Shown here one piece after another: positions 499-44,681 of a stretch of DNA of 64,000 nucleotides. A program made the translations under genes and the position numbers. Each line of letters begins with the position of its first letter. Position 1 is the stretch's first letter. Below the pieces are notes generated by a model, which saw only the letters and a program-made list of their open reading frames with translations, did not search any database and was not told the DNA's origin. The DNA is from Octopus vulgaris (taxonomy: Eukaryota), in assembly GCA_951406725.2 (NCBI GenBank), contig OX597815.1, positions 59,954,001 through 60,018,000 of the forward strand, in the 5' to 3' direction.

Positions 499-499
<1 letters not shown>

Positions 500-664
500 T
501 AGCATTATGACCCGTCGTTGCCGGGTCATAGTGCTAGTGCATGTATTATGTGTATATATATGTGTACATATTACATGTACATCTATATATATACATCTAC
601 ACATAAAATACAAAATACAAAGTTATATCTTGATATCGCTAGTGATAACTATACTCAAAATATG

Positions 665-1500: not shown

Positions 1501-1877
1501 ACATACAGCCAAACTTCATATAGATATTTAATGCTAGCCAATTAGCAGATAATCTAATATAAAAGCCGTGGTAAACGGTATGTGTACAGCTCCATCTGGA
1601 CTATTCCATTTCTGCAAACTAATTTTATTTTAAATTTATTCCCATTCATGTGAAACCACTTATTCAAGTTCAAGTCATTGACGCAATTTTATACCAATTG
1701 CTATTTTTACTTTTGTTATGTTACGATTATATTATATACTTTAGTTTGATTTTAATTATTACTTACTACATATAATTCAATTGTTATTATTATCTCTAAT
1801 TTTTATTGTTAAAGTGAAAGTATATGACATAAAATAGAGAAATGTTTTTGTTTCACTTTTAACACGTAATACGGAAA

Positions 1878-2166
1878 TAGTGGAAAAGATATGATATTGC
1901 TATGGGTTCGCCCAAGGCAAGAAGTTGAAAATTTTTTTGCCCATGAAACTACATGGACCCTAAGTAAGGCATGTGTAAAATTTGAATGAAATTGGTTGTG
2001 TAGTTCTCAAATTTTAGGGAATCGTAGTGGAGAAGATATGATATTGCTGTGGGCTCGCCCTAGGCAAAAAGTTCAAATTTTTTGCCGATGACACTCCCCG
2101 GATCCTAAGTAAGGCATGTGTAAAATTTGAATGAAATTGGATGTGTAGTTCTCAAGCTTTAGAGAA
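1878..2166. repeat. Tandem duplication of a ~148-bp unit within the Helitron
   Basis: gtggaaaagatatgatattgc...taagtaaggcatgtgtaaaatttgaatgaaattgg...gtagttctcaa occurs twice in a row. Confidence 0.9.
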
Positions 2167-2239
2167 ACACACAGACAGACATACAGACAGACACACATTC
2201 TCAGTTTTATATATAGAGAGATATACATCTGTATATGTA

Positions 2240-3895: not shown

Positions 3896-3973
3896 ATAAA
3901 AGTATAATATATATATACATATATATGTACATACATATACATATGTATATATATACATACATATATATGTATA

Positions 3974-5591
3974 CAGTTGCGGCCAAAATGTTCCGAACGG
4001 CATTGTTTTCGTCAGTAAGTAGATATAAGTTTTTATCAAAGTTGTTTTATATTCTATAATTTTCACAGACAATAAATACAATATTTTTTGTTATTGTCTG
4101 AGATTTTGGTGTAATTTGAGAGGATAATAAAACAGTTATGGATGATTTAGTGAATTACTGCAAAACCCATGGCGGCCAAAACGGTTGCTTTTACTCCATG
4201 CTTTAGTATATTTAACCGTCGAACTCTAATGTTTTGAATTTGTTTACGTGACACTTCGTTTACTAAACAGTAGTAAGAATATCTGCAGTGTACTTTGTTA
4301 ATATAATGCCACTTACTCCGTTACCAATTCGTCAGCAGATTATTAAGCTTCGAAAGAAGGATAATTTAAGTATTAGGTCTATTGCAAAGATTGTTAACAA
4401 GTCAAAAAGTGTTGTTCACGGTATTATTAAGGTCTACGATGATTGTGGTTCGTGTGAAGCAAGACAGTCTACAGGTAGGCCAAGAAAAACGACCAAGACA
4501 GAAGATCGTGCTATGGTAAAGTTGGTTAAAAAGGACAGATTTAAAACTGCTGCTGCTGTTTTTCGGGAAATGAGCATTGTACTGAAGAAAACTTTATCTC
4601 GAAAAACTGTGTCTCGTCCTTTAGTTGAACATGACCTACAAGCAAGAGCACCTGCAGTGAAGCCACTGATCAGCTCCAAGAATAAAAAGTATCGTCTTAC
4701 CTTTGCAACCGAACAGGTGTTGTGGTCTCAAGAAAAATGGCAAACGGTGCATTTCAGTGATGAATCTAAGTCTATGTTATTTGGCTCAGATGGGAAAAAG
4801 GTACGTTCGTAGAAAAGTAGGTGAAAAATTGTCACCTAAATGCCTTAAGACTAGTGTTAAATTCGGTGGAGGAAGTGTCATGGTTTGGGGGATGATATCT
4901 GGAGATGTTGTGGGCCCTTTGGTGCGATTACATGGAAAGGTAAATGCAGGAGTTTATAAACAACTTGTAAAAGATCATGTCTTGCCTGTGCTGAGAAATT
5001 CAACTAAGCGACCACACATATTCATGCAGGACAATGCCCCATGTCACAAGGCTAAGGGGCTCATGAAATTCCTCAAGGCTGAAAAGGTTATTGTTATGGA
5101 TTGGCCTGCTCAAAGCCCAGACCTCAATCCTATTGAAAATGTGTGGAATATTCTAGGAGAACGTTTGAAAGCCAGAAATCCTAAAACAACCGAGCAATTA
5201 TGGAATGCCCTTCAGGAAGAATGGAATAAGATCACCTAGCAAGAAATTGAAAATTTAATTTCCCCATGCAGTCAAAAATGTCAAACTTTGATTGAAGCTA
5301 AAGGGCTTCACACTAAATATGAAATAATTCCAGCATTCTCTGTCACTTTTTGATTATTTTGTTATTTTTTCAACCGTTCTGATCATTTTGGCCACCATGG
5401 GTTTTGCAGTAAATCACTATATCATCCATAACTTTTGTATTATCCACTTAAATTACACCAAAATCTCAGACAATACCAATTACTATTGTATTTATTGTCT
5501 GTGAAAATTATAGAATATAAAACAATTTTAATAAAAACTTATACTTACTTTTCTGACGAAAACAATGCCGTTCTGAACATTTTGGCCGCAA

Positions 5592-5594
<3 letters not shown>
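3974..5594 (+). mobile_element. Tc1-family DNA transposon (DD34E) with ~210-bp IR/DR-type TIRs and TA target duplication
   Basis: TA|CAGTTGCGGCCAAAATGTT...AACATTTTTGGCCGCAACTG|TA; the GGCCAAAA motif is repeated at both ends of each TIR; transposase inside. Confidence 0.95.
4306..5322 (+). pseudogene. Tc1 transposase with a frameshift near 4800 and a premature stop at 5237
   Basis: HTH with GRPRKTT, FSDESK, MQDNAPCHK, WPAQSPDLNPIENVW; 34 residues between the second D and E. Confidence 0.93.
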
Positions 5595-5650
<56 letters not shown>

Positions 5651-5848
5651 TGAATGAATTATCCTATGTTTATCGTCACCATGGAAAATTCGATGAACCG
5701 ATACCAGGGTAGCAAATTCACGTCAGAAACACGGTTGAAGCGACCTGTCCAAGGGTAGAAACTCCGGGTTCATGTGCAGAAATTTGTGTGTTATAAATGA
5801 ATAAATAAAAGAATGGAGTCGAACGAAGATGTTAACAAAATTCCTTTA

Positions 5849-5930
5849 CTCTCGACATATGTTTCGAAGACAACATGGTTTCATTCCAAAGGAATAAAGG
5901 GTGAAAGATTCAATCTTCTCATCAGGAAAG
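5849..5930 (-). ncRNA. Type-I hammerhead ribozyme (canonical C3:G8 core), sense to the PLE
   Basis: CTTTC CTGATGA GAAGA-[long loop]-TCTTC GAAA CATATG TC GAGAG; palindromic stem III ACATATGT and GUC cleavage triplet. Confidence 0.8.
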
Positions 5931-6205
5931 AAAAGGAGCCTCTCTCAACACAAGACAAACAAAAATTTCGATGACTGTCTACATGGTAAACAAAACGATA
6001 ATATGTGTTTTAAAAAAACCGTTAGAAGAATTGACGTCAAAGTTAGATAGTAGGAAGAGAAGGGTTAAAGGAATAATAGGTAGGGAACAAGTGGAGAGGG
6101 AAGGGTACGTTGATTAAAAGAATGTTCAAATGCTTAGGAAAGAATTTCGCTATCGAAGTGGAGTGTACGTTAAGCTAATTGTTCAAACCACAATGACTAT
6201 CGTAA

Positions 6206-7765
6206 TCATTTATATGAGTAAAAAGTATGTTTCTGCCAGTGTTTACATTTGTACGATTTCTCTATGAGTGTGTTTACAAGGGGGTCCTTAGAGAAGAGAA
6301 TATGGAAGAGTTCAGAGTTGCAAATGTTACAAAATCTCCTGCCCTTATCAAAAGGAAAGGATACAGATAGTATGAACCAATCTAACTTAAAATCTTTATT
6401 ATTGTCTTTAAGACGCCAAACTAATTTACTTAGTCCTGTATTATGTCGTTTTTTACTATCCCTGAATGTTGAATAATGGTTTGAAATCCTCTTGGATAAC
6501 TGGGAAGTAGACGCTCCTATATGGAAGAAGACATCGGTACCGGAAGAGATTCTACACTGGTAAATTGAATTCTTAATCTTAGAATTACTAGACAAAAATT
6601 TAATTCTGTTGGGGTTGTCCTCCGAGATCGAAACGAAGTTTTTATTGCTATGATTGTTATTACTATTATTATTAGCGCCAACAACTACACTATTCCTATT
6701 ATTATTAGTATTATTAATGGTAATACAACCAATAATACCATCAACAACAATACCGTTATTGTTATTACCATTAACATTACCATTGTTATTAACACGACTA
6801 ATACTATTATTATCATCATTGTTAACACTATCACTACTACCATGGCTATTACTGAGTTCATAAGTACCAGTTACGCCTTGTTTGTCTCCTCTGTGTTTAG
6901 CCCCTTGTGGGTAGTAAAGAAATATTACTATTAATACTATTCCTATTATTATGATTGTATGATGGGTTGGAATTAGCAAGATTAATGCTGGAACTCCCGG
7001 GTGAAGAATCTTTATTTAGCAGCTTGGTATTGTGAGAAGATATAATTTGTGAAAGATTTCTAGTGTTAGAGAAAGCGATTCTAACTATGTGGGAATTGAT
7101 AATAGAATAATATCTAGAATTTTTGGGAAAGTTCCTAGCAACGGCTTCACGGAACTGCAAGGGAAGATTCGATTTAATTTGTTTTCCGAAAGGTATTACG
7201 AACCAGATACAGTTTTTAGTGACCTTTGAATTGTACGTAGTGTTATTTGTGAAAGTAAGGGGAAAATTTCTGGGTTGGAAATTTGAGGTTGAACGGCGCT
7301 TACCTCCCCTGGTCCGTAAGGAATTTATATTATATATAGGGCTGCTTGCACTATTAGAATTAAAATCACTATTCCTATTACAAGTAACTATTCTATCTGG
7401 AGAAGCAGATGTTGGTTTAGAATGAGCTGAATCGATGTATGATACTTTCTCCTTATAGCCGGCTTTTAACAAGGCGGCGTTATAGAAGTCTGCCTTTTGG
7501 TTAAAGATGTCAACATTGGCAGATAATTTAGACAGTCTCAGAGATATGTTTTTGACTAAATTATCGGTAACTGGCCTAGCATGATTACTGTAAAGGCTAA
7601 TATACTTAAGATTTGTGGAAGGTTTATGATAAGGGAAGTATAAGTTATTCTGTAAATTGAGGGTAATGTCTAAGAAGTTGGCTTTAATTAACTCATCGTC
7701 AAAAACGATGCGCAAGCCCATTCTACTAAAAAACCTAACTAATCTGTTCTTAACCTTCTGTATTT
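6206..7765 (-). pseudogene. Penelope RT thumb, Asn-rich linker and GIY-YIG endonuclease (interrupted)
   Basis: NFLDITLNL..PYHKPSTNLKYISLYSNH; WFVIPFGKQIKSNL; SIYQCRI..FHIGASTSQLSKRISNHYSTF..TGLSKLVWRLKD..CNICNSE..CKH. Confidence 0.88.
6860..6927 (+). mobile_element. Short SINE 3' fragment inserted in the Penelope ORF
   Basis: taagtaccagtt...ccttgtttgtc..tgtttagccccttgtgggta.taaagaaata matches the tail of the SINE at 38268-38490. Confidence 0.7.
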
Positions 7766-7968
7766 TTGATTTGAAATGTTTTAATCAACGTACCCTTCCC
7801 TCTCCACTTGTTCCCTACCTATTATTTCTTTAACCCTTCTCTTCCTACTATCTAACTTAGACGTCAATTCTTCTAACGCTTTTTTTAAAACACTTATTGT
7901 CGTTTTGTTTACTATGTAGGCAGTCATCGAAATTTTTGTTTGTCTTGTTGTTGAGAGAGGCTCCCTTT

Positions 7969-8050
7969 CTTTCCTGATGAGAAGATTGCATCTTGCACCC
8001 TTTATTCCTTTGGAATGAAACCATGTTGTCTTCGAAACATATGTCGAGAG
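7969..8050 (+). ncRNA. Type-I hammerhead ribozyme (inverted pLTR copy)
   Basis: CTTTC CTGATGA(7974-7980) GAAGA...TCTTC GAAA(8034-8037) CATATGTC GAGAG. Confidence 0.8.
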
Positions 8051-8096
8051 TAAGGAAGTTTGTTAACATCTTCGTTCGACTCGATTATTTTAGTTA

Positions 8097-8141
<45 letters not shown>

Positions 8142-24790: not shown

Positions 24791-25185
24791 CTAGCAGTAT
24801 CGCCCGGCGTTGCTCGGGTTTGTAAGGGAAATAATTATATAAGCATTTTTAGAGATGTAAAGTATAATAGCCATCTCAATATGGCTAACCACAAAGTGGG
24901 AGTGGTGTTACTGTAGCTTTTTACGTTCTGAGATTTAATAATAAATTTTAGAGAGTTACTTCCCTTATATATGTCAAAAATGGATTAAAAATGGGAAAAA
25001 TTGCTGGTAAATTTTTTTTTAAATCGTAGACTCATCGTAGACGCGCGCTAATACCCAGACGGTCTCGATATGAATCACGACTATAAGATACCCGGTTTTG
25101 GTTAAACTGCACCGCAAAATGTGGGAGTAGTTAGGAATCTAAATCGTAGGAGACAGACACACAACCTCACTTTTATATATAAAGA
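24791..25185 (-). mobile_element. Short Helitron (395 bp) forming the 3' module of the composite
   Basis: Own 5' end A|TCTTTATATATAAAAGTGAGG at 25185; 3' hairpin CCCGAGCAACGCCGGG then CTAG. Confidence 0.85.
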
Positions 25186-25248
25186 TTTCCTCTATTTACA
25201 TAATATTGAGGTCTCTTTCTTTCTTTTGTTATCTTACTGTTTTTACCA

Positions 25249-25285
<37 letters not shown>

Positions 25286-25292
25286 TATATAT

Positions 25293-25623
25293 AGTTACAG
25301 AGATGTACTTGCATAGCAAGTGACTTGATCGTGTGACTGAGATCGTGTGCTGGAACGAAAACAGTTGCAGCGTTGAAGGTGTTTATAAGCCATTTAAGAA
25401 ACACACAAAAACCGTTAGATTCACTTCAACATTTAAATTTAATTTGTCAAAATATTTTCGTCGCTTTGAGATCGCGACCTGTTAGCACGATATTTTTGTC
25501 AGTGAACAGGTCGCGGTCTGAAAGCGACGAAAATATTTTGGCAAATTAAATTTAAATGTTGAAGTGAATGTAACGGTTTTTGTGTGTTTCTTAAATGGCT
25601 TACAAACACCTTCCACGTTGCAA
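25293..25623. mobile_element. Fold-back hammerhead element (arms 25365-25483 and 25505-25623)
   Basis: ~120-bp inverted arms; a single-arm relative lies at 44413-44616. Confidence 0.8.
25495..25545 (+). ncRNA. Type-I hammerhead ribozyme with swapped G3:C8 core
   Basis: TTTGTCA GTGAACA G GTCGC-ggtctgaaa-GCGAC GAAA ATAT TT TGGCAAA: 7-bp stem I (one G-U), 5-bp stem II, palindromic stem III. Confidence 0.72.
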
Positions 25624-25645
25624 TATATATATACACACATATATA

Positions 25646-25681
<36 letters not shown>

Positions 25682-25724
25682 TGTATGTATGTATGTGTGT
25701 ATATGTGTATGCATGTATGTGTGT

Positions 25725-25950
25725 GTGTGCGTGTCTGTGCTTGTGATTGTCCTCCACCACTGCTTGACAACGAATGTTGGTTTGTTTACATCCCTGTCAC
25801 CTAGTGGTTTGACAAAGGAAACAGATAGAATAAGTACAATGCTTACAAAAATAAAACTGGAGTTGATTCATTAAACTACAATTCTTCAAGGCATTGCCCC
25901 AGCATGGCCACAGACCAATGGCTGGAAAAAGCAGAAGAATAAAAGAATAC
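25725..25950 (+). mobile_element. SINE 3' half
   Basis: gcttgacaac..gtttacatccc..gatagaataagtac..ccagcatggccacag tail. Confidence 0.75.
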
Positions 25951-26015
25951 ATTCTCTGCTTTGGTCTTATGTTCAAGGCATGAGAAAGCTTGAGTTTACA
26001 TGAGAAGGCCTAACA

Positions 26016-26282
26016 GACCTGGTAGAAACAGCAGCCAAATCTCCCTCAAATCACACCTTACTGTCTTATGTATGTATATATATATATGAGCCAATGAGGG
26101 GGACCTCTACATGGCAGCTAGACCTGGTAGAAATAGCAGCCAAATTTCCCCCAATTCACACCTTACTGTCTTATCTATGTATATATGTATGTATGAGCCT
26201 ATGAGGGAGACCCCTACATGGCAGCTAGACATGGTAGAAATAGCAGCCAAATCTCCCTCAAATCACACCTTACTGTCTTATC
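26016..26282. repeat. ~107-bp tandem repeat, 3 units (last partial)
   Basis: gacctggtagaaatagcagccaaat...cacaccttactgtctta repeated. Confidence 0.9.
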
Positions 26283-26319
26283 TTTCTGCTACTTGGATAT
26301 AGGTGTTATATTCGTCGTA

Positions 26320-26365
26320 AAAACTTTCCTGTCACACACTCACGCACACGCACACACACACACAC

Positions 26366-26421
<56 letters not shown>

Positions 26422-26844
26422 ACACGCACGTTAGCTTACAATTTTATTTATATATTTGCGTGTCTATGTGTGGAAAGAGGAAGTGGGAGGCAGAGTGAAA
26501 GAATCACTCACTACAGTAAGTGAATTACTTTCATTTTATTCGTTGCCCACTGTGTGTGTGCGTTTGCGTGCGGTGTAAACCAGACTAAGAAAAGCATTTG
26601 ACACACACACCAGAATGTGAGTTTTCTGTAAATTTTGCTTAATTGGAGTTAAAATTTAAAAAACTGGACCTGGCATGACGCGATGCATTGTACTCTTAAA
26701 AATGCAAGGTAAATTGTAATTGAAGAAATCCTATATTGTAGATTTGTATAACTCCCAAAGGGAGGCAGATTAAATCTGCCTTTTAAAAACTTTCCTGTCA
26801 CACACTCACGCACACGCACACACACACACACGCGCACACTCACA

Positions 26845-26875
<31 letters not shown>

Positions 26876-27245
26876 TCACACACACGCACGTTAGCTTACA
26901 ATTTTATTTATATATTTGCGTGTCTATGTGTGGAAAGAGGAAGTGGGAGGCAGAGTGAAAGAATCACTCACTACAGTAAGTGAATTACTTTCATTTTATT
27001 CGTTGCCCACTGTGTGTGTGCGTTTGCGTGTGGTGTAAACCAGACTAAGAAAAGCATTTGACACACACACCAGAATGTGAGTTTTCTGTAAATTTTGCTT
27101 AATTGGAGTTAAAATTTTAAAAACTGGACCTGGCATGACGCGATGCATTGTACTCTTAAAAATGCTAGGTAAATTGTAATTGAAGAAATCCTATATTGTA
27201 GATTTGTATAACTCCCAAAGGGAGGCAGATAAAATCTGCCTTTTA
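26320..27245. repeat. Tandem duplication of the ~465-bp Helitron 5' module
   Basis: aaactttcctgtcacacactcacgc...ggcagat.aaatctgcctttt occurs twice here but once in copy 2. Confidence 0.9.
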
Positions 27246-27284
27246 TAATAAGAGATAATCGTAACCCTGGATACAAGCAAGCAA

Positions 27285-27354
<70 letters not shown>

Positions 27355-27375
27355 ATTATTATTATTATTATTATT
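27285..27375. repeat. (CTA)n(ATT)n microsatellite
   Basis: Directly visible. Confidence 0.95.
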
Positions 27376-28063
27376 CATTCTTTTATTAGCCACAAGGGCT
27401 CACATAAAATAACATTAAAGGACATGTAACAACATAAAAGACAGAAACGGGACAATACAATGGGTTTTCCGCGTGTAAACAAAGCATAACAATAAAAGAT
27501 CAAACAAATTAAAATTTCCAATAGGGGAGGCGCTTTAAGGTCCTCGTTGAAAAATCCAGAAAAGCCACTGGTACCTGAACAACAGGGCGAGAGCCTTTCT
27601 CTTTTAATTCCTTTTTTTTTTTAAAGGTACACGCTCAGAATTGGCCCTTCCACACTGGCCATTCTTCTAACATTCACCCACCTTTCAAAACTTGGAATCA
27701 ATATATAAGGAGCGTATATGGTATATACACGCTGCATATTAGCTAATATACAAGGTGTATATAAGAGAGTTTCATCTTCCAACTCATTTCCTTCCTAGCA
27801 TGTAATGTCGTGTCCTTGAATATAATTCGTCAATAAATTGTAACATTGATAGTTCTGATATAAAAATTAAGAAGTTATTGTTTCTCGCATTGCATTTTCT
27901 GTTTTTTTTCTTCTTTTGTCGATTAGGGTGTCATGTGTGGCAAGGGTATGATGGTTTTTTGAAGAAAGACAAATTTTGGCACTTAGTGAAATAATTTCCT
28001 TCTTTATAATCATTCTCTGAGTAATAATTTTTCGATTCCACCTAAGTCTAACCACCTAATGGT

Positions 28064-28151
28064 ATTGACCAAAGTCCAGCGTACGATATAATTGGTCAGT
28101 TAAATTTAAATTTAACTGACCAATTATATCGTACGCTGGACTTTGGTCAAT
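28064..28151. repeat. Perfect 88-bp palindrome with no spacer
   Basis: attgaccaaagtccagcgtacgatataattggtcagttaaattt|aaatttaactgaccaattatatcgtacgctggactttggtcaat. Confidence 0.95.
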
Positions 28152-28827
28152 CCCATTACAGGTAATAGGTGGTTGGACTTTACAACATATCAGTAAGTAA
28201 ATAATTGAAATTAATTGTTGAGCACTTTATTATGATAAACTACTAATTATTACTATAAACATAATTATTAAGAAATATGATTACTTCAAAACGTTATGGC
28301 ACTCTCACTCCTCTTTGTCTAAACCTATTGGCGTATCCTGCTATTGTAAATTTTTAATTTTTACTTTTTTATTATTTATCCACTCTGTCACCCCTATAGA
28401 AAATTAATTAACCAATTAATATTTTAAGCCTTTAATCTTCCTCTCGAGGCTCTTCTTTTCTTTTCTTTTCTTTTATGTATATATTTTTCTTCACTCTGAT
28501 GAAGCTCCATGCTCCAGATCGGATGTATTACCAAATATGATGAATATTATTTTTTATATTTTCAGTGGCAATACCATATAACATTGTAAGTAGAAACAGG
28601 TGTTATATGGGATACAGTCTATTTCTTTTGTTGTTGATCAATGTTTCTCCATTTTCTGTTTATTTTAAATTTGATTCCTGATAAATTCATGTTTATCTTT
28701 GTCATTACCTGTAACCTATGAGCATAATATGCCTGCATATGTATGTTCAGGGTTAACATAGGTAATTATACTGGTAGTACAACGGATATTATCCCTTAGA
28801 CGGTTATTCCAACCTCTAACTCTACTA

Positions 28828-28920
<93 letters not shown>

Positions 28921-29089
28921 TCAGATTGAGTAAAAAGTAAGCAACGTTTTGAACCATGAAGAATTCGTACAGGATTTTTGTCGAGTTTTGAATTTAAACA
29001 TTTTTTGCAACTGCCTGATAATACAGCTATAGGCTTGCCCAAATGAATCAATAAATTAACATTGGTATTTTTTTCACTGTTGTTACAAT

Positions 29090-30750
29090 CAGCATTTTTG
29101 AAATTGAGTTGCTGAAGTTGAGTTGTATTTGTGAGTTGAAGTGAATTTATTGTTGATTACTGCTGTTGTTAATACCGTTGTTATTATCGTTTGTTATACC
29201 GTTAATTTTTGTGTTGTTAAACTATCACATTGAGGAAAATGGAGATGGCGCCAGCGGGCGGCCACTGCTATGCAGCCGTAACTGGAAGAAGAGCAGATAA
29301 GGAAGCATTAGAGACCTTTGAAATAAAGGTCGAGCCCAGGAAGATGAAGGCTAGTGAGAAGCTGCTGAAAAAGGAAGGCGAGAAGATAAAGTTGACGCCA
29401 CCAGAGGAACTAATGAACAGCGTTAGGAAGAAGACGGTGACCTACAAGACCATGAAGGTTTGCCATAAGAAGAATCGAGATAGCAACTGTGGAGGAGATT
29501 GAGAAGGTACTGGAAAGTATGAAAAATGTGATAACCTTCAGAGCAAGAGGCAGGAAATATGCCACTATAGATGTACGTTTCACATCGGAAGAGGAAGCTG
29601 TGAGGTATGCTACGGAGGCAATCCGCTCAGAAGAATGGATTCTTCTGCCATCCTATTGCGGCAAACGTGTGGCGAGAGTGCGGGTAGGCCAGGTGCCCCC
29701 GGAGCTGGAGGAGGCATGTCTAATGACGGCCATTATGTATAACATGGAAGACGGGGCCAGAATACTGAAGGCCACCAAAACAAACAAGTTGGACTACTGG
29801 GGCTATGGGTTGGAGTTAACAATCCAGGCAACATAATAACAGAGGAGATAGTGTTACCTGACGGGTTTTCACTAAGAATGAAGGTGGAGGGAAGACCGCC
29901 TGTGTGTTACGAATGTGGCGAAAAGGGACACATGAAGGCGAGATGCCCACGAAAAGAACAGTGAGAGACTAAAGAAAATGTCGAACAGGCAGTAACAGTT
30001 GAGAATAATGAGAAAACAGATGAAGAAGAATTCATGCTGGTGGAAAGAAAAAGAAGGAGGAGCGGTAGGGTAACCCTGCCGCCCACTAACCAAAAAAAGA
30101 AGAAAGAAGAGGTGGAAAAGAAAGAGGTGACGAGAAAGAAAGATGATAAAAGTGAGACGGAAAAGGAAAGTGAACAAATAATTAAGGTGTGTGACAATGA
30201 GTCAGAGAAGGAAGAAGCAAGTATGAGGATGACAGATGACTTGACGGAAGACTTAGGAACTTAACTACAAGAGGGTGAGATGGAGAAGCTGTTTACAGTG
30301 GAGACGGAGAAAGGGAAAGTACCAGACTCAGAGAAGAGTATAGAGGAGCTTCTGATAGGAAAGGTAGTAAAGGGAGAAAGGAGAAGACCGAAAGGAGGTA
30401 AGAACAATAGGAATTTTGTGACCTATTCTAAGAACAAGGAGGTGGATAGAAAAAATCGCAAAGTTCAAACACATCATAAGAGTAAAGTTACCCAACGACG
30501 TATACCCAGAGAGTGTGAAGGCTATGGTGGTCGACAGGGAAACCTATAAGAAACTTAGAGACATGTGCGGAAGTAGGATTGACCCAGCCGGAGCATTAGT
30601 GAGCTGCCATTGATTTGTTAGAACTTGAGCCATATATGAGACGTTAAAAGGAAAAAAATTAATTACTTGTTTTTTTTTTTTAAAAAAAAAGGGAAAAAAA
30701 GAAAGGAAAAAGTTTTTGATAAAAACGATAATTAAGAAAAAAAACAAAAG
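29090..30750 (+). mobile_element. Tx1/L1-like ORF1 (gag-like, CCHC knuckle) pseudogene with no ORF2
   Basis: Frameshifted ORF from ~29240; zinc knuckle PVCYECGEKGHMKARCP at ~29900-29950; E/K-rich tail; A-rich end ~30680-30750. Confidence 0.7.
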
Positions 30751-30999
30751 ATAGTGACTGTGTGTACAAACGTTCAAATGGTACTGCATGAGGAGTGGGG
30801 CCGATGCAGCCATTCATTTTCATTATTATATAATATTCATACTCATTCGTTTGTGTTTTTGCCCCCACTGTGGTGTTGTATCTGTCCTTGTAGTGTCCCC
30901 TCTGTGTTAGTGGCCTGAGTGCCAAAATAAAGAAAATGTTACAATCATCTGAACTGACTCGTTCGTGAATGTTGTTTGTGGCGTTGTTCGAAAAATTTG

Positions 31000-31630
31000 G
31001 GGTAAGTTGTAATATATTTGTGGTTAATTTGTTAGATTTGCACTGTTGAATTATTAATTTGTTGAACTTTTGTTGAGTGTTTTTTAAACACCCATTTTTC
31101 TGATTGTGGCAGTCCTTTGTTAACGTTTCTTCCCTTGTGGGAAGGGGTAAAATATTATTATAATTTCCGTGGCGCATTTAATTTCAGCTATGGATAAACC
31201 TCCAGTAAAAGGCAGGTCCAACGAGGAACCTGGTTCGAGCAAAAGTACCAAAAATACAGCCAACTTCGTAAATTGCGAAAGCAGTTCTGTTTTAAAAAGC
31301 ATGCCAACAGGCGATGAATTTATAAATGAAAAAAAAAACAAAACAAAAAACAACGAATTTTGCAGCAGTCGTAGGTGTAATACTAAAAAATCTAAAATGT
31401 GACCACGACGAATTAACGAAATACAAAGGAATGATAAAAAAGGGGAGTAGCAAAACTAAAATTACCTCTTGCATTGAGAAAACGCATAAAGCTCTTCGAT
31501 ATACCATAACTTTATAAATCGCTTTTGTTAAAAACTAAAAATTTGGGCATGGCCAGCAAAGAAGCAGTCGAGTTGTGTCTGAAATCAGTATGGAACGACG
31601 TGGAATACCTTACAAGAGTAAACAAGAGAG
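31000..31630 (+). mobile_element. 5' fragment of a related LINE ORF1
   Basis: LGMASKEAVELCLKSVWNDVEYLTRVNK resembles IATVEEIEKVLESMKNVITFRARG in the 29 kb ORF1. Confidence 0.45.
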
Positions 31631-31738
31631 ATAGTGACAGGCAGAAACAAGGAAAATGCCTCTTGTATTTGAATACTATGCAAATATTGTTTTAAAAAAC
31701 TTTTCTTTTAACTTTTCCAAAATGTAATTGTTTTCCAT

Positions 31739-31783
31739 ATTTACAGTTGAAAAAGACTCAATGACTGAAACCAGTCCTGAAAT
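31739..31783 (+). ncRNA. Hammerhead-like motif with U3:A8 core
   Basis: ATTT-A-CAG TTGAAAA AGAC-tcaat-GACT GAAA CCAG TC CTG-AAAT; one mismatch in stem II; GUC triplet. Confidence 0.55.
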
Positions 31784-31851
31784 TACTTTAGCTTTTTCTA
31801 CCTTGACTTTTTTCTCGTGTGTTCAACTCGTGTGTTCCTTTTCAACCTTGT

Positions 31852-31924
<73 letters not shown>

Positions 31925-31927
<3 letters not shown>

Positions 31928-32885
31928 TTCAATAACCGCACCTTGAGTTTTAGGCACTGGAACAAAAGAAAAGCGACAAAATTATCTAATCATATTTGGT
32001 CTTTAAAAGATAAAGGTGTCGATTATAACATCCATTGGAAGATTTTGGCCAAATGTAAGCCCTACACCAACGGCAGCGGAAAGTGCGGTCTATGCAACAT
32101 GGAGAGATGGCTTATCTGGAAAAGCAGCTTAGACCCTACTACACGTCTAAACTCAAGGACAGAACTTTTCGGATCATGCCTACATGTGACAAAATTGTTG
32201 TTACGTTTTTGGTCCCCTAAAGAAAACAGATAGAACTTGCTTTCTATATTATGTCCCAAAAAGTTTTTTTTATCGCATTATACCTTTTATTATTTCATAT
32301 ATTTTTATATTTTCACACATATTAATTTTTTCTGTACTTTTCTATCCTGCATTTTTTCCTGTGCCTATATAGACGTGTATATAGATTTATTTGTACACGT
32401 GTGTGAATATGTATGAGTGGGCAGTTTTAGATGTGTGCGTATGTGCGGGCATAAGAATGCATATATATAGATGTTTTTACTTAGTATTTTTCCATTTTTT
32501 AAGGTTTTTTTTTTTGGGGGGGGGGGCATATGTATATTCATTTTTCGTATCTGCGTGTGTATGTATGCGTATATAAACATGTGCGGGTATGTACATATAT
32601 GGGCGTGTGTGTGTATGAGTGCATAAGGGCATGTCCGTATATGAACGTGGTTTTTATGCTTTGTATACTTCCTTATGTTTTTTTTCTGTTACCTTTAACC
32701 ATGGTTTTTCTTGTGCTTGTGCGTATATAAACGTATGTATGAACTTTTACGGTACGCATGTGTGTGTGTATAAGTTTGTATATATATGCGTATATATTTG
32801 GCGAAAAATGCGAGTGAAGATGTGTACGTTTTCATAGTGACGTATAAGTATGCACGTGGGTCCGCGAGCGCACACGTGAGCGTAT
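31925..32885 (+). mobile_element. Penelope-like 3' fragment (GIY-YIG C-terminus to 32233 plus 3' non-coding region)
   Basis: SFRH..KATKLSNHIWSLKDKGVDYNIHWKILAKCKPYTNGSGKCGLCNMER..RLNSRTELFGSCLH. Confidence 0.85.
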
Positions 32886-33929
32886 GACTCTTTCCACTGC
32901 GAGGGAATTCTTCCCTCATCTAGATAGTGCGTAAATCGCTCAGCGAGGATTTTCCAGAGCTGCTCTCTGCCTGACTTTAGCACCTCCGATGTTATACCGT
33001 CTTTCCCTGGAGCCTTTCCATTTTTCATCGAGCCGATGGCTCTTTCAACCTCACTGACAAGGATAGGTGGCACGTTTTCTTCCTGTTGGAGTGGTAGTAA
33101 CGGCTGGACATTTCTGGTAGACTTAAAGAGCTTGGTGTAGAAGTCTTCGCAAACTTTTTCTATCTCGCTCTTCTCGTTGACCGGTATTCCATTTGTATTT
33201 TTCAGGGCCGTCACCTCCGATCTATATAGTACCATGTCCCTCTTGCATTTCTTGAGGCTCTTCTTTTCCTCTGCGGCCTTCAAGAGCTTCTCCATCCGGT
33301 ATGCCTCAAAGTCTTTCTTTAGTTGCTGACGAATCACTCTGTTGAGAATGGAATATTCAAGGTGATCTTCAATAGTCCTCTTCATATTTTTCCTCTTCTC
33401 GAGTAACTTCGTAGTTTCTTCCGAGATTCTTCCCTTCTTTTCTCTTGGGCATACTCCCTTAGCCTTCCTTAAACACTCCTTCAGTTTCCCTATCAGTGAG
33501 TTGTAGTCATCGTCTATGTCTCCTTGGCATCAGTCTTCCTGCATGATGGCTTCCTGCAGCTTTGCCTCGTTGTAGACTCGGACACGTTTTCACCTCGACG
33601 CCAAATACAGCGCCATCTTCTCCCTCTTCCCGTCGATGACGACCCTCGCCCTTACCAGACGATGATCGCTGCCGGTGTTGAATGGCGTCACGACGGAGGC
33701 GTCATGTAATATGTGTCGCTTATCAACCAGGATGTAGTCGATCTCGCTTCGGTGCTTAGAGTTCGGCGATATCCAGGTCCATCTCTTCCTCTCCCTCTTC
33801 CTGAATAGGCTGTTTCCGATGTAGAGCCGCCTCGCCTCTGCCATGGTAGCCAAACGTTCTCCTCTCTCGTTTCTCTCTCCCATGCCGAATCTCCCGACGT
33901 ACTCCTCTCCTTGTCATCCATGTCCAACC
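32886..33929 (-). mobile_element. RTE-clade LINE fragment (APE C-terminal half to RT start)
   Basis: GRFGMGERNERGERL, WTWISPN..EIDYILV, TGSDHRLVRA, MKNGKAPGKDGITSE, IPSQWKES. Confidence 0.9.
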
Positions 33930-34459
33930 TGCACGTCAATCGGGCCACTCCATGACGGCGAGTGCAACTCGAGCGACGAGAGGCTGCTAAGAATCACAGG
34001 TTCCCGAGGGCCGTCATGGAAGAGGACTAAACTTGCCATATACACCTACAATTGCAGGTCCATAACAGGGTGGCAAGAACTGAACCACCTAATGGAGGAG
34101 AGGAAGAAGATCAGGTGCGACGTTCTAGGGCTGTGCGAGACACGATGGAAGAAGGAAGCGAGTATACGATGGCAAGATGGATGCACTGTGAGATTAGGGA
34201 GAGCAGAATGTGCTAGATCGGTCGGAGGTATCGGATTCATCGTAAGTAAGGAATGGGCTTCGAGGGTCGCTTCTTGCCACTTCATATCATCACTGATTGG
34301 TATACTAAATGTGAACCTCTCAGGGAAGGCCACCCTCAAGATTGTCAAGACCTATGCTCCCACAAGTGCCAGCGACGACGACGAGGTGGAAGAATTCCAT
34401 CGACAACTAGACAAAGGGCTGGCTATAAAGTCCACTTACACTGTCGTGATAGGAGACTT

Positions 34460-34463
<4 letters not shown>
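33930..34463 (+). mobile_element. Inverted 5' part of the same RTE LINE (APE N-terminal half)
   Basis: IYTYNCRSI, DVLGLCETR, GGIGFIV, YAPTS, VVIGDFN. Confidence 0.9.
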
Positions 34464-34541
<78 letters not shown>

Positions 34542-35046
34542 TATATATATATATACATATATATATACTAATATATACATATATATATATACTAGCAGTA
34601 TCGCCCAGCGTTGCTCGGGTTTGTAAGGGAAATAATTATATAAGCATTTTTAGAGATGTAAAGTATAATAGCCATCTCAATATGGCTAACCACAAAGGGG
34701 GAGGGGTGTTACTGTAGCTTTTTACGTTCTGAGATTTAATAATAAATTTTAGAGAGTTACTTCCCTTATATATGTCAAAAATGGATTAAAAATGGGAAAA
34801 ATTGATGGTAAATTTTTTTTTTAATCGTAGACTCATCGTAGACGCGCGCTAATACCCAGACAGTCTCGATATGAATCACGACTATAAGATACCCGGTTTT
34901 GGTTAAACTGCACCGCAAAATGTGGGAGTAGTTAGGAATCTAAATCGTAGGAGACAGACACACAACCTCACTTTTATATATAAAGATTTCCTCTATTTAC
35001 ATAATATTGAGGTCTCTTTCTTTCTTTTGTTATCTTACTGTTTTTA

Positions 35047-35098
<52 letters not shown>

Positions 35099-35307
35099 TA
35101 TATATAGTTACAGAGATGTACTTGCATAGCAAGTGACTTGATCGTGTGACTGAGATCGTGTGCAAGAACGAAAACAGTTGCAGCGTTGAAGGTGTTTATA
35201 AGCCATTTAAGAAACACACAAAAACCGTTAGATTCACTTCAACATTTAAATTTAATTTGTGAAAATATTTTCGTCGCTTTGAGACCGCGACCTGTTAGCA
35301 CGATATT

Positions 35308-35358
35308 TTTGTCAGTGAACAGGTCGCGGTCTGAAAGCGACGAAAATATTTTGGCAAA
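35308..35358 (+). ncRNA. G3:C8 hammerhead, copy within Helitron copy 2
   Basis: Same sequence as 25495-25545. Confidence 0.72.
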
Positions 35359-35802
35359 TTAAATTTAAATGTTGAAGTGAATGTAACGGTTTTTGTGTGT
35401 TTCTTAAATGGCTTACAAACACCTTCCACGCTGCAATATATATATACACACATATATATATATGTATGTATGTATGTATGTGTGTATATGTGTATGCATG
35501 TATGTGTGTGTGTGTGCGTGTCTGTGCTTGTGATTGTCCTCCACCACTGCTTGACAACGAATGTTGGTTTGTTTACATCCCTGTCACCTAGTGGTTTGAC
35601 AAAGGAAACAGATAGAATAAGTACAATGCTTACAAAAATAAAACTGGAGTTGATTCATTAAACTACAATTCTTCAAGGCATTGCCCCAGCATGGCCACAG
35701 ACCAATGGCTGGAAAAAGCAGAAGAATAAAAGAATACATTCTCTGCTTTGGTCATATGTTGAAGGCATGAGAAAGCTTGAGTTTACATGAGAAGGCCTAA
35801 CA

Positions 35803-36280
35803 GACCTGGTAGAAACAGCAGCCAAATCTCCCTCAAATCACACCTTACTGTCTTATGTATGTATATATATATGAGCCAATGAGGGGGCCTCTACATGGTA
35901 GCTAGACCTGGTAGAAATAGCAGCCAAATTTCCCCTAAATCACACCTTACTGTCTTATCTATGTATATATGTATGTATGAGCCTATGAGGGAGACCCCTA
36001 CATGGCAGCTAGACCTGGTAGAAATAGCAGCCAAATTTCCCCCAAATCACACCTTACTGTCTTATCTATGTATATATGTATGTATGAGCCTATGAGGGAG
36101 ACCCCTACATGGCAGCTAGACCTGGTAGAAATAGCAGCCAAATTTCCCCCAAATCACACCTTACTGTCTTATCTATGTATATATGTATGTATGAGCCTAT
36201 GAGGGAGACCCCTACATGGCAGCTAGACATGGTAGAAATAGCAGCCAAATCTCCCTCAAATCACACCTTACTGTCTTATC
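35803..36280. repeat. ~107-bp tandem repeat, 5 units (last partial)
   Basis: Same unit as at 26016, with two more copies. Confidence 0.9.
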
Positions 36281-36963
36281 TTTCTGCTACTTGGATATAG
36301 GTGTTATATTCGTCGTAAAAAAACTTTCCTGTCACACACTCACGCACACGCACACACACACACACGCACCCTCACACACACACACACGCGCACACCCACA
36401 CACACCCACTCACACACACGCACGTTAGCTTACAATTTTATTTATATATTTGCGTGTCTGTGTGGAAAGAGGAAGTGGGAGGCAGAGTGAAAGAATCACT
36501 CACTACAGTAAGTCAATTACTTTCATTTTATTCGTTGCCCACTGTGTGTGTGCGTTTGCGTGTGCTGTAAACCAGACTAAGAAAAGCATTTGACACACAC
36601 ACCAGAATGTGAGTTTTCTGTAAATTTTGCTTAACTGGAGTTTAAATTTTAAAAACTGGACCTGGCATGACGCGATGCATTGTACTCTTAAAAATGCAAG
36701 GTAAATTGTAATTGAAGAAATCCTATATTGTAGATTTGTATAACTCCCAATATGGATGCAGATAAAATCTGCCTTTTATAATAAGAGATATATATTAATT
36801 GTTATCACCATATTAATATGGCAGTCTTATAGATATAAGACTAAAAGCTGTCGCTGATTAGCTCCATGAGGCCATCGCCTTAAGATAGCTATTTGACACA
36901 CAAACTGTGTCCATTATAACCTTCGAACAAGGGAGGTCAGCCACTTCACACTGCCAGCAGACA

Positions 36964-37006
36964 GCTACAGACGCGTTTCAGGGTATTTGCCCTTTGTCAA
37001 TGTAGC
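36964..37006 (-). ncRNA. Type-I hammerhead with U3:A8 core (left arm)
   Basis: Reverse complement of 37194-37236. Confidence 0.78.
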
Positions 37007-37193
37007 GTAGTCAGACCCAGCAGGTGTCACCACCGATCGTCTCTGTTCGAAGGTTTTATTTACCTAGTTTAGAGAGACTTAGTAATTTTAATATTTCTAT
37101 TATTGAAAACAAGTGGATGTATTCCACCGAAACTAGGTAAATAAAACCTTCGAACAGAGACGATCAGTGGCGACACCTGCTGGGTCTGACTAC

Positions 37194-37236
37194 GCTACAT
37201 TGACAAAGGGCAAATACCCTGAAACGCGTCTGTAGC
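37194..37236 (+). ncRNA. Type-I hammerhead with U3:A8 core (right arm)
   Basis: GCTACA TTGACAA AGGG-caaata-CCCT GAAA CGCG TC TGTAGC: perfect 6-bp stem I, 4-bp stem II, palindromic ACGCGT stem III, GUC triplet. Confidence 0.8.
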
Positions 37237-37465
37237 TGTCTGACTGGCAGTGTGAAGTGGCTGACCTCCCTTGTTCGAAGGTTATAATGGACACATTTTG
37301 TGTGTCAAATAGCTATCTTAAGGCGATGGCCTCATGGAGCTAATCAGCGACAGCTTTTAGTCTTATATCTATAAGACTGCCATATTAATATGGCGATAAC
37401 AATTAATTTCCAGTAACGCTGCCGTAATCTCTTTTAGAGAGACTTAGTAATTTTAATATTTCTAT

Positions 37466-42689: not shown

Positions 42690-43270
42690 TTTACAAATTT
42701 GGTCCTTCATCTGGTACAGCTTATTATAGAGATATTTTCAGTCATTCAATTTGGGGGAGAACTTAGTTATGAAGTATTTTTCCCATATTCCTCCCGAAGG
42801 AGGTGTCATTCTTTGGACATTTGTAGAAGGGAAAGATCTTAAATTTTCCTTCTCCACATGAATCTAGGTGTTTAATCAGTGGTATCTTGCGCAGTTCTTC
42901 CTGTCGGACATGTTGACGGTGAATTCTGGCTCGTTGGCATAAAGAATTTCCAGTTTCACCTATGTAATCCTTCTTGCATGTGGGGCAGTTTATGCAGTAT
43001 ATTACGTTCTGCGTCTTGCAGTTCATATCTGCATTTGTTTTGAATATGTGACCACTTTTAAATTTCATTTCTTTGTCTCCTTCTATGTATTTGTAGGTGG
43101 GGTTGCTGCAGATCCCACATCTACCATCTCCGCACTCTTTTACATAAAATTCAGTTTTAGTTTCTGATGAGAATTTCGCTCTTGTTAGATGTTCCTTTAG
43201 GTTTTTGTCATGTCGTCTACTGCTTTTTATGCAATATTTGTTTAGTGTGTTTTCCATTTTGGGGCTTTGT
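42690..43270 (-). pseudogene. Penelope-like GIY-YIG endonuclease fragment
   Basis: NLKEHLTRAKF, CGDGRCGIC, NCKTQNVIYCINCPTCKKDYIGETG..RARIHRQH..HLDSC..FKIFPFY. Confidence 0.88.
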
Positions 43271-44110
43271 TTGTGTTGATGTTCTGGTTCATTTCGTTTT
43301 CCTCATTCTCATTTTCTTTGGTCTTGTTGTTGTCGTTCACGTGTTGTTGCTGTTGTTGTTGTTGTTGCTATTTCCCCCTAGTCATATATTTTAAATATTG
43401 TTCAATTATAAAAAATATTAAATTTCGTCCTTACAATTTTTAAATATTTATTTCAGTCTTGTTTCGTTTTTTTTTCATTCTAAAGCAGTTTATATATTTC
43501 ATATATTTTTTAAAACAGAAATATATTTTTTATCTCTTATTTTCCATCTTCACCACCAGATATTTTTTGTATCTTTTTATAATTTATTCCTGATTTTCTT
43601 TTATTTTTCTCTTATGTGCATATGTGCGTATGTGAGTGTGAGAGAGTGTGTGTGTATCAATTATATCTATATACAAGATATATATATATATATATATATG
43701 ATTCTCAGATTGCCACTGTTGTGCTGAGTGGCCTTGATGAGCCCCACCTTATCAACAAACTAAGACCAGCCATAAACGACAGAAAATAATTACACGAAAC
43801 AGATCGGTTACTATAGTAACACCAGTCAGTGTTTGTCACATCCTCACCAACACATCTGATCAACGACCTTTTTCTATTCGTCACTTTTCCGCATGTCCTG
43901 ATGAAGAAGTCATAGCCCCGAAATATAAAAATGTAAGGTACAACCACAACTTTGTTTTCGCTTTCTCTTCTTTTTATAGTTTACTTTCTACATTCTCGCA
44001 TCGTTTCGGCCCTACCAAAAATACTTTTTAACATAGAAATACACATCCTTCACAACAAATGAGTCCTTTCCTTCCTTTCCTTCTTGACACAAATATATAT
44101 ATATATATAT

Positions 44111-44380: not shown

Positions 44381-44554
44381 TTGCTCAAATATATATAAAT
44401 ATATATATATATATTACGGAGATGTACTCGCATAGCAAGTAATTTGATCTGAGATCGTGTGCTGAAACGAAAACAATTGCAGCGTGGAAGGTGTTTATAA
44501 GCCATTTAAGAAACACACAAAAGCCGTTCGATTCACTCCAACATTTAAGTTTAA

Positions 44555-44604
44555 TTTGTCAAAATATTTTCGTCGCTAAAATCCGCGACCTGTTCACTGA
44601 CAAA
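44555..44604 (-). ncRNA. G3:C8 hammerhead, independent copy outside the Helitron
   Basis: TTTGTCA GTGAACA G GTCGC-loop-GCGAC GAAA ATAT TT TGACAAA; perfect 7-bp stem I; loop II differs from 25495 while stems and core are conserved. Confidence 0.75.
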
Positions 44605-44612
44605 GTCCGTGC

Positions 44613-44681
<69 letters not shown>

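Follow-up and report, generated by a model that had tools for sequence, protein, structure and literature searches.

The window, a stretch of 64,000 nucleotides from Octopus vulgaris, carries two copies of a compound Helitron-like block separated by 7,336 bp. In a global alignment the copies at 24791-27255 (2,465 bp) and 34592-36788 (2,197 bp) are colinear and share the same orientation, and 20 of 1,585 aligned bases differ (1.26%, counted without microsatellites, extra 107-bp units and a 464-bp duplicate), which bears out the near-identity claimed by the initial annotation. Their unequal lengths are accounted for by microsatellites, a 107-bp array (2.5 versus 4.5 units) and a 464-bp tandem duplicate found in copy 1 only. 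Each block is made up of the following Helitron-related parts:

24791..27255, minus strand: compound Helitron-like block, copy 1, a possible donor locus (5′ TC at 27255, 3′ CTAG at 24791)
34592..36788, minus strand: compound Helitron-like block, copy 2, in a (TA)n run, with an endonuclease-gene fragment on one side and a U3:A8 hammerhead-bearing inverted repeat on the other
24791..25185, minus strand: inner complete 395-bp non-autonomous Helitron (element A), copy 1; it has an A|TC 5′ end of its own and provides the 3′ end of the block
34592..34986, minus strand: element A, copy 2, six substitutions from copy 1
24803..24818, minus strand: subterminal 16-nt imperfect palindrome, copy 1, with 12 nt between it and the 3′ end (DNA fold predicted at -4.5 kcal/mol)
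34604..34619, minus strand: subterminal palindrome, copy 2, one change relative to copy 1 (predicted -3.3 kcal/mol)
26785..27255, minus strand: 5′ segment of another Helitron-like element (B), copy 1, with a TC start, an AT-rich lead, a short hairpin and a (TG)n tract
36319..36788, minus strand: 5′ segment of element B, copy 2
26321..26784, minus strand: 464-bp tandem duplicate of segment B minus its first 11 bases, copy 1 only

Ends and cargo of the block

Read on the minus strand, both copies run from A|TC to a 16-nt imperfect palindrome, 8 nt and CTAG|T, with TC 5′ termini at 27255 and 36788. An A precedes and a T follows the block at the junctions of both copies, as had been claimed, and identity between the copies continues for only one base past the left end and two past the right end, so that homology does halt at the hairpin+CTAG and TC ends. 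The 3′ terminus, with its palindrome 12 nt from the end followed by CTAG, fits the Helitron definition, in which CTRR follows a hairpin of 16-20 bp located 10-15 bp from the terminus (PMC13286980). The initial annotation had also described unrelated flanks and no target site duplication. The first part stands, since the 1-kb flanks of the two copies align with scores of 27 and 25, no better than shuffled sequences (maxima 29 and 30, n=50). The second is less clean, as the block edges carry flank repeats of 3 bases in copy 1 and 6 bases in copy 2, the latter within the (TA)n run; given their unequal lengths and the AT-rich sites, we read these repeats as probable chance matches.

The A|TC at 25185 supports the earlier description of a complete 395-bp inner Helitron with its own 5′ TC. 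The inner TC, located at 25185 and 34986, is likewise preceded by A, and at 2221 there is a third Helitron-like 5′ end, also after an A, which the first 35 bp of element A match at 89%. Based on motif likeness, segment B would represent a Helitron 5′ end, and no terminator for element B was found inside either copy of the block. The minus strand contains 19 CTRR sites in copy 1 and 18 in copy 2, and hairpin+CTAG|T occurs only at the terminal one in each; upstream folds of -2.5 to -5.0 kcal/mol accompany four other CTRR sites in copy 1 and five in copy 2, none of them CTAG|T. By inspection, no Rep-helicase-like frame is apparent among 46 open reading frames. The 464-bp duplicate of segment B, which the initial annotation did not record, likely postdates the split of the two copies, because copy 2 stands apart from both units at 9 of 13 variable columns.

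Between segment B and element A lies a cargo of repeats, one of which also occurs on its own elsewhere in the window:

25186..25293, unstranded: T-rich linker (25186-25248) and (TA)n run
25294..25623, unstranded: fold-back element, copy 1, composed of an inverted core-truncated copy (25294-25483) and a direct copy (25484-25623) of a ~200-bp repeat
35107..35436, unstranded: fold-back element, copy 2, with its hammerhead-like motif at 35308-35358
25495..25545, plus strand: minimal type I hammerhead-like motif with a G3:C8 core, GUGAACA
25730..25945 (copy 2 at ~35517-35738), plus strand: old 3′ half of a repeat that we take to be SINE-like, sharing 67-77% identity with three further copies in the window
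26015..26283, unstranded: 107-bp tandem repeat, copy 1, 2.5 units
35802..36281, unstranded: 107-bp tandem repeat, copy 2, 4.5 units
44414..44617, minus strand: solo copy of the G3:C8 repeat outside any Helitron, motif at 44555-44604, flanked left and right by (TA)n and diverged by ~7% from the cargo arms

To its left the fold-back element of copy 1 has a (TA)n run and to its right a (TA)/(TATG) microsatellite, and its arms differ at 7 of 119 bases. No tRNA gene was called in the SINE-like repeat. The extra 107-bp units of copy 2 appear to be recent, since they are just 0-1 substitutions apart. Judged by divergence, the cargo itself predates the block duplication, as the fold-back arms are 5-6%, the solo copy 7% and the SINE copies 23-33% apart, against 1.26% between the blocks.

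Probable movement as a compound Helitron

We propose that the block is a non-autonomous compound Helitron which, in all likelihood, was duplicated in a single read-through event, with copy 1 the likelier donor and the hammerhead-like motif a likely passenger. Canonical Helitron ends at both breakpoints, divergence that is even over six block segments (chi2 p=0.42) and the lack of an earlier terminator (no internal hairpin+CTAG|T) argue for transposition as a unit, and thus favour rolling-circle transduction over segmental duplication, as the initial annotation had concluded. As in a compound Helitron, the 3′ end comes from a second, downstream Helitron, namely the complete 395-bp element A with its related 5′ end at 2221, and no usable terminator precedes the final 3′ end. 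Two other types of mobile element were rejected: retro-insertion with target duplication, as there is no tail, the flank repeats are unequal and the block ends in hairpin+CTAG, and a TIR transposon, as inspection of the alignment shows that the two ends are not inverted repeats.

In the proposed sequence of events, the SINE half, a short tandem repeat and the Penelope-type fold-back in its TA run would have come to lie between elements A (downstream) and B (upstream) on the same strand, and the hairpin+CTAG of B would have been lost, or may never have been present here. Transposition starting at the 5′ TC of B would then have displaced a single strand of ~2.2 kb and stopped at the hairpin+CTAG of A, after which the copy would have been inserted at an AT, probably via a circle. 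The Rep-helicase would come from elsewhere in the genome. Later, the 5′ segment would have been duplicated in copy 1 and the length of the 107-bp array altered.

This read-through mechanism is already in print, and the block is a further case of a known anatomy. The end-bypass model goes back to Feschotte and Wessler 2001 and Tempel 2007 (via PMC4224331, in excerpt). The compound Helitron HelibatN539 of vespertilionid bats likewise combines one Helitron's 5′ end with the 3′ end of another on the same strand and host DNA in between, moved as a unit (PMC4224331, in excerpt). The octopus block differs from HelibatN539 in carrying debris of repeats instead of part of a gene and in having a complete downstream element that has a 5′ TC of its own; two copies of the block are seen. 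Helraiser, with which this mode of end bypass has been demonstrated by experiment, shares the 5′-TC/CTAG-3′ ends, a hairpin ~11 nt from the end and the AT target, and its 3′ transduction, like the de novo 3′ ends of HelibatN541, HelibatN542 and HelibatN580, involves read-through where no terminator is present and use of a neighbouring Helitron's end (available text of PMC4778049); in contrast to Helraiser, the block encodes no transposase. A putative capture by FoHeli1 in Fusarium oxysporum C081 also features an upstream copy without a 3′ hairpin and a terminator supplied by a downstream copy. The available text of that study (PMC13342296) does not report a moved copy, whereas a duplicate is present here, and the two ends of the octopus block come from different families. 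A search of metagenome contigs with the 3′ end of element A returned 0 matches, which is uninformative for an animal repeat. The block would add an animal case to a model supported in bats and cell culture, leaving that model unchanged. With the duplicate and possibly the donor within one window, it is a clear instance from nature of capture by Helitron read-through. The locus could therefore serve to test end bypass and short-range re-insertion.

Origin and spacing of the two copies

We lean towards copy 1 as the donor locus and copy 2 as a single daughter 7.3 kb away. Copy 1 is favoured because T is unusually frequent next to its element A on either side, as would be expected if A had interrupted a single tract: the T fraction is 0.55 inside the block and 0.58 just outside (top 1.5% and 0.6% of 60-bp windows), compared with 0.38 at copy 2. 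It counts against this clue that it is compositional and that Helitrons favour AT-rich 3′ flanks in any case (PMC4778049, in excerpt). A continuity search across the side of segment B gave weak matches only. None of ten frames from the left flank of copy 1 had a Pfam match (17 frames were searched in all, with one junction frame and several others left out), and no homologue of this flank was found.

The spacing of 7.3 kb is the least explained point of this reading, given that no local hopping was seen with Helraiser. The initial annotation stated that local hopping is reported, which the literature we consulted did not support: there was no clustering in 701 Helraiser re-transpositions (available text of PMC4778049), the Fusarium work infers just a chromosome-scale 'local burst' (PMC13342296, in excerpt), and no statement on Helitron clustering was found in the available part of PMC8547701. 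Random insertion would place a neighbour within 10 kb with p of at most 0.001 per copy for families of up to ~180 copies, assuming a genome of 2.8 Gb.

The strongest competing explanation, which we consider possible but clearly less probable, keeps the same mechanism with another history. The composite would be an established dispersed family formed elsewhere, and the two copies independent insertions whose closeness reflects chance and the selection of the window. Such a family would fit the A|T junctions at both copies and the unclustered insertions of Helraiser (PMC4778049, in excerpt), and ~1,000 copies in 2.8 Gb would yield 3.6 close pairs genome-wide. Among the sequencing runs listed, 20 of 24 contain the block or part of it, 16 of them at least half of its words; the parts are repeats, so these counts do not imply the joined form. 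No RNA run is among those listed as containing it, which has no bearing on expression. However, the richness in T on either side of A in copy 1 hints at a native context, and in an annotation of O. vulgaris the recently active Helitron insertions number only 178, from 8 families (available text of PMC13282606).

It is rather unlikely that the cargo was acquired by insertion or gap repair (filler DNA) in an existing Helitron, with A nested at its 3′ end or replacing it. Like its solo copy, the fold-back element does lie within a TA run, insertion is possible at any time before the duplication, and both retroposition into Helitrons (PMC4224331, in excerpt) and filler-DNA capture (PMC6544945, in excerpt) are in print. 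Against this route, the cargo resembles one uninterrupted piece of old genomic debris, its SINE half differing from other copies by 23-33%, and the 3′ end consists of an entire second element that has a 5′ TC of its own, which matches the end-bypass prediction.

We consider it unlikely that repair-mediated segmental duplication or gene conversion between pre-existing Helitron ends produced the second copy without transposase action on the block as a whole. The two copies do lie near each other in the same orientation, tandem duplications within the block indicate local instability, and divergence is slightly higher at the ends (13/760, 1.7%) than in the cargo (7/825, 0.85%), but this difference is not significant (p=0.18; p=0.42 over segments). 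Moreover, both sites would have needed a 5′ end of type B and a 3′ end of type A beforehand, and we roughly estimate the chance of both random breakpoints landing on such Helitron ends at ~6e-5. An assembly artefact in which two haplotypes of one locus stand in tandem is most improbable: although a divergence of ~1.3% is a plausible allelic difference in an outbred invertebrate, both flanks are unrelated and the duplicate stops exactly at the element termini, where a false duplication would bring flanking sequence along.

The G3:C8 hammerhead-like motif

The natural G3:C8 core is the most interesting part of the locus, and it is independent of the Helitron. A hammerhead descriptor matched strictly at five places in the window and nowhere in any of 10 shuffles. 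The motif at 25495-25545 comprises a 7-bp stem I, one extra G, a 5-bp stem II, GAAA, a palindromic AUAU and UU, with a predicted cut after 25538 in copy 1. In sequence it resembles a Penelope-type minimal hammerhead, since all of stem I, an additional nucleotide separating position 9 from 10.1, a stem II closed by G10.1-C11.1, GAAA, a short palindrome replacing stem III and a UH site are present, and both kinds of repeat have dispersed solo copies (PMC4209133, in excerpt). It differs in that the extra nucleotide is G rather than the A, C or U (H) of the Penelope-like consensus, and in its core pair, which is G3:C8 instead of the C3:G8 and U3:A8 of Penelope-like hammerheads (Cervera and De la Pena 2014; PMC4209133, in excerpt). 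The core reads GUGAACA in all three intact copies, and so is neither CUGANGA nor the U3:A8 variant, the 3-8 pair being kept but swapped. An engineered C3G/G8C double mutant has partial activity only (PMC11167929, PMC8495972). If it cleaves, the repeat, with its three intact copies, could widen the known natural core variants.

A role of the motif in mobility was rejected, as the solo copy has no Helitron ends; the motif is likely a passenger without a role in the movement of the block. Predicted pair probabilities of stems I and II are 0.75 and 0.80 for the isolated motif and 0.000 within the fold-back, which suggests that it is sequestered by its own inverted copy and inactive in this context. 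The initial annotation held that the block spreads a ribozyme, and this was not upheld: the putative motif gains just one extra copy in the window, the solo copy lies outside the block, the stem probabilities in the fold-back are ~0, and the monomer of such minimal hammerheads, most of which occur solo, showed no cleavage (available text of PMC4209133). We regard as very unlikely the combined proposition of a natural, active G3:C8 hammerhead family (the swapped pair being known as an engineered rescue mutant), a multi-copy compound Helitron carrying it and a local hop from donor to daughter.

A focused Rfam scan gave no hammerhead among 33 matches for the G3:C8 motif; the U3:A8 motifs had none among 14 matches either, so the Rfam test is insensitive here. 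The 150 of 262 Rfam matches listed and those of two focused scans were all to microRNA-type hairpins below the gathering score, and were rejected as chance. The hammerhead pattern had 0 matches in metagenome and viral contigs, again uninformative for an animal repeat. No natural G3:C8 hammerhead family turned up in the literature searched, which covered a minority of subscription journals and PMC4209133 save for one supplementary file; within the same coverage, the titles and abstract openings of the papers listed mentioned no Helitron with a hammerhead inside it. No RT/GIY-YIG reading frame was found next to any of the three G3:C8 copies, so that, unlike in Penelope elements, no Penelope ORF is attached to the repeat. 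The adjacent inverted 5′-truncated copy and the (TA)n targets are indirect, Penelope-like traits (PMC8557442, in excerpt) and are both seen here.

Paired blocks and their ends

The two near-identical blocks reported in the initial annotation are real: global alignment places them as colinear and co-oriented copies with 7,336 bp between them, differing at 20 of 1,585 aligned bases (microsatellites, extra 107-bp units and a 464-bp duplicate excluded). Both are compound Helitron-like structures on the minus strand.

24791-27255, minus strand: copy 1
34592-36788, minus strand: copy 2
24791-25185, minus strand: element A of copy 1, a complete 395-bp Helitron forming the 3'-most part of the block
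26785-27255, minus strand: segment B of copy 1, a second Helitron-like 5' part that begins with TC, contains a short hairpin as well as a (TG)n tract and lacks its own 3' end

From the element's 5' end, B is followed by 107-bp tandem repeats (2.5 units in copy 1, 4.5 in copy 2), a SINE-like 3' half and a fold-back element; a TA run and then a 62-bp linker lead into A. The 3' half, which we take to be SINE-derived, shares 67-77% identity with three further copies in the window. This cargo between B and A predates the duplication, since the fold-back arms are 5-6% apart and a solo copy of the same repeat is 7% away. A 464-bp tandem duplicate of B is confined to copy 1 and is likely younger than the copy split, because 9 of 13 variable columns separate copy 2 from both B units of copy 1. 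Divergence is uniform over six segments of the block (p=0.42), with the ends slightly more diverged than the cargo (13/760 vs 7/825, p=0.18).

Identity overshoots the left end by one base and the right end by two, and alignment scores for the 1-kb flanks of both copies fall inside the range of 50 shuffles. On the minus strand, both copies start with TC preceded by A and finish with a 16-nt imperfect palindrome, 8 nt, CTAG and then T. The chance of both breakpoints falling on such ends is ~6e-5, a lenient estimate that admits 11 hairpin+CTAG/T sites in the window, any ATC and 2-base slack. Minus-strand CTRR sites number 19 in copy 1 and 18 in copy 2, and only the last one carries the hairpin and CTAG/T. 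The 5'-terminal 35 bases of A recur with 89% identity at an A/TC end at 2221, which independently supports 25185 as a real terminus. Flanking repeats of three bases at copy 1 and six at copy 2, whose target is a (TA)n run, are read as chance; the claimed absence of a target site duplication is thus likely, although not clean.

Probable movement, possible donor and estimated age

Transposition would start at the TC of B, find no terminator and halt at the hairpin+CTAG of A. The block layout matches what end bypass predicts and Helitron ends lie at the breakpoints, so that movement as one unit by Helitron read-through, as first proposed, is well supported and in our judgement likely. The mechanism itself is already in print, and this block adds one further example: in the text available from each source, end bypass was inferred for HelibatN539 (PMC4224331) and proposed for FoHeli1 (PMC13342296), and read-through was demonstrated for Helraiser when the hairpin was missing or bypassed (PMC4778049).

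In copy 1, T makes up 0.55 and 0.58 of the sequence on the two sides of A, values that rank within the highest 1.5% and 0.6%, respectively, among 60-bp windows. This fits A having split one tract; the left flank of copy 2 is plain (TA)n. This compositional clue moderately favours copy 1 as donor and copy 2 as only daughter. B-side continuity and coding potential of the copy 1 flank, both searched as donor tests, yielded nothing. Helitrons prefer AT-rich 3' flanks, according to the accessible part of PMC4778049.

The short spacing is the weak point. If insertion were random, each member of a 178-copy family would have a neighbour within 10 kb with probability 0.001, and the same portion of PMC4778049 gives no local hopping among 701 Helraiser events. 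Two readings fit: Helitrons may be able to hop locally in this genome, or they form a large family and the window was chosen for its two copies. As excerpted, PMC13282606 counts 8 recently active Helitron families with 178 insertions in O. vulgaris, and its supplement 84 families overall (1.02% of the genome). The SINE-like repeat and the abundance of microsatellites resemble those of an octopus genome; if this attribution holds and the paper's calibration applies (distance 0.09 = 25 million years), the copies split ~1.8 million years ago (1.0-2.6). The stretch or part of it is contained in 20 of the 24 sequencing runs listed (10 studies); these matches do not show the joined form, because the block's parts are repeats. 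Scans for the hammerhead pattern in metagenome and viral contigs, and for the 3' end of A in metagenome contigs, gave 0 matches, which says little about an animal repeat.

Hammerhead-like motifs

A type I minimal hammerhead descriptor found 5 strict matches in the window and none in any of 10 shuffled versions.

25502, plus strand: G3:C8 motif, copy 1
35315, plus strand: G3:C8 motif, copy 2
44597, minus strand: G3:C8 motif, solo copy
37000, minus strand, and 37200, plus strand: a pair of U3:A8 motifs just beyond the right end of copy 2

Rfam returned no hammerhead match for either variant, the known U3:A8 type included, so this test is insensitive here. Like the Penelope-type minimal hammerheads described in the consulted sections of PMC4209133, the G3:C8 motif has the stems and the palindrome, carries an additional nucleotide ahead of position 10.1 and shows G10.1-C11.1; it differs in that its core pair is swapped and the additional nucleotide is G. 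A natural U3:A8 core is in print (PMC3088659, in part); the literature searched yielded no natural G3:C8 core, and the G3:C8 cases in it were all engineered rescues with partial activity (PMC11167929, PMC8495972 and PMC3884650, as excerpted). The motif would thus work like a Penelope-type minimal hammerhead and probably descends from one; we do not class it as a member of that group. In the cargo, an inverted copy cut off at the core is joined to the 5' side of the motif repeat, a Penelope-like trait in the available text of PMC8557442, and animal retrozymes have been tied to Penelope elements (bioRxiv 10.64898/2026.07.22.740005, in part).

The two stems of the motif have predicted probabilities of 0.75 and 0.80 when it is folded alone and of 0.000 inside the fold-back, and the cargo motif is thus predicted to be shut. 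The one minimal hammerhead whose assay appears in the portion of PMC4209133 consulted showed no cleavage as a monomer. The claim that the Helitron spreads a ribozyme was overstated: as far as the window shows, the motif, predicted to be shut in the cargo, gained a single additional copy, and it also exists as a solo copy without a Helitron. The solo repeat (44414-44617, minus strand) has (TA)n on both sides and an altered stem II loop with the stems kept. Since it has this solo copy in a TA run, the G3:C8 repeat spreads without Helitrons. The solo copy lies outside any fold-back, which makes it the most suitable of the three for assaying cleavage.

Other elements in the window

499-537: 39-bp near-palindrome, adjoining a long TA run, that has CTAG/T at each end and whose central hairpin is similar to A's terminator
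~1535-2221, minus strand: Helitron-like element owning the A/TC end at 2221, with a microsatellite-like tract and two 145-bp internal repeats
3917-5651: transposase remnant between ~265-bp inverted repeats, presumably Tc1-like from its translations
5792-8106: remnant between 340-bp inverted repeats, from its translations presumably Penelope-like; protein searches on it gave no matches
28048-28180: near-perfect fold-back of ~130 bp, with no hammerhead core by descriptor scans
32747-34463: broken LINE-like element, which we take to be RTE-type; its endonuclease part lies on the plus strand, matches Pfam PF03372 weakly and faces the opposite way to a minus-strand RT-side part, and the element ends in the TA run where copy 2 sits
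36794-37407: inverted repeat, 93% identical between its arms, adjoining copy 2 on the right, each arm bearing one of the U3:A8 motifs on opposite strands, with palindrome CGCG and a UC site, a variant type already known
42763-43302, minus strand: reading frame that matches GIY-YIG weakly (E 0.002, short of the Pfam threshold); the solo G3:C8 repeat lies ~1.1 kb away, also on the minus strand
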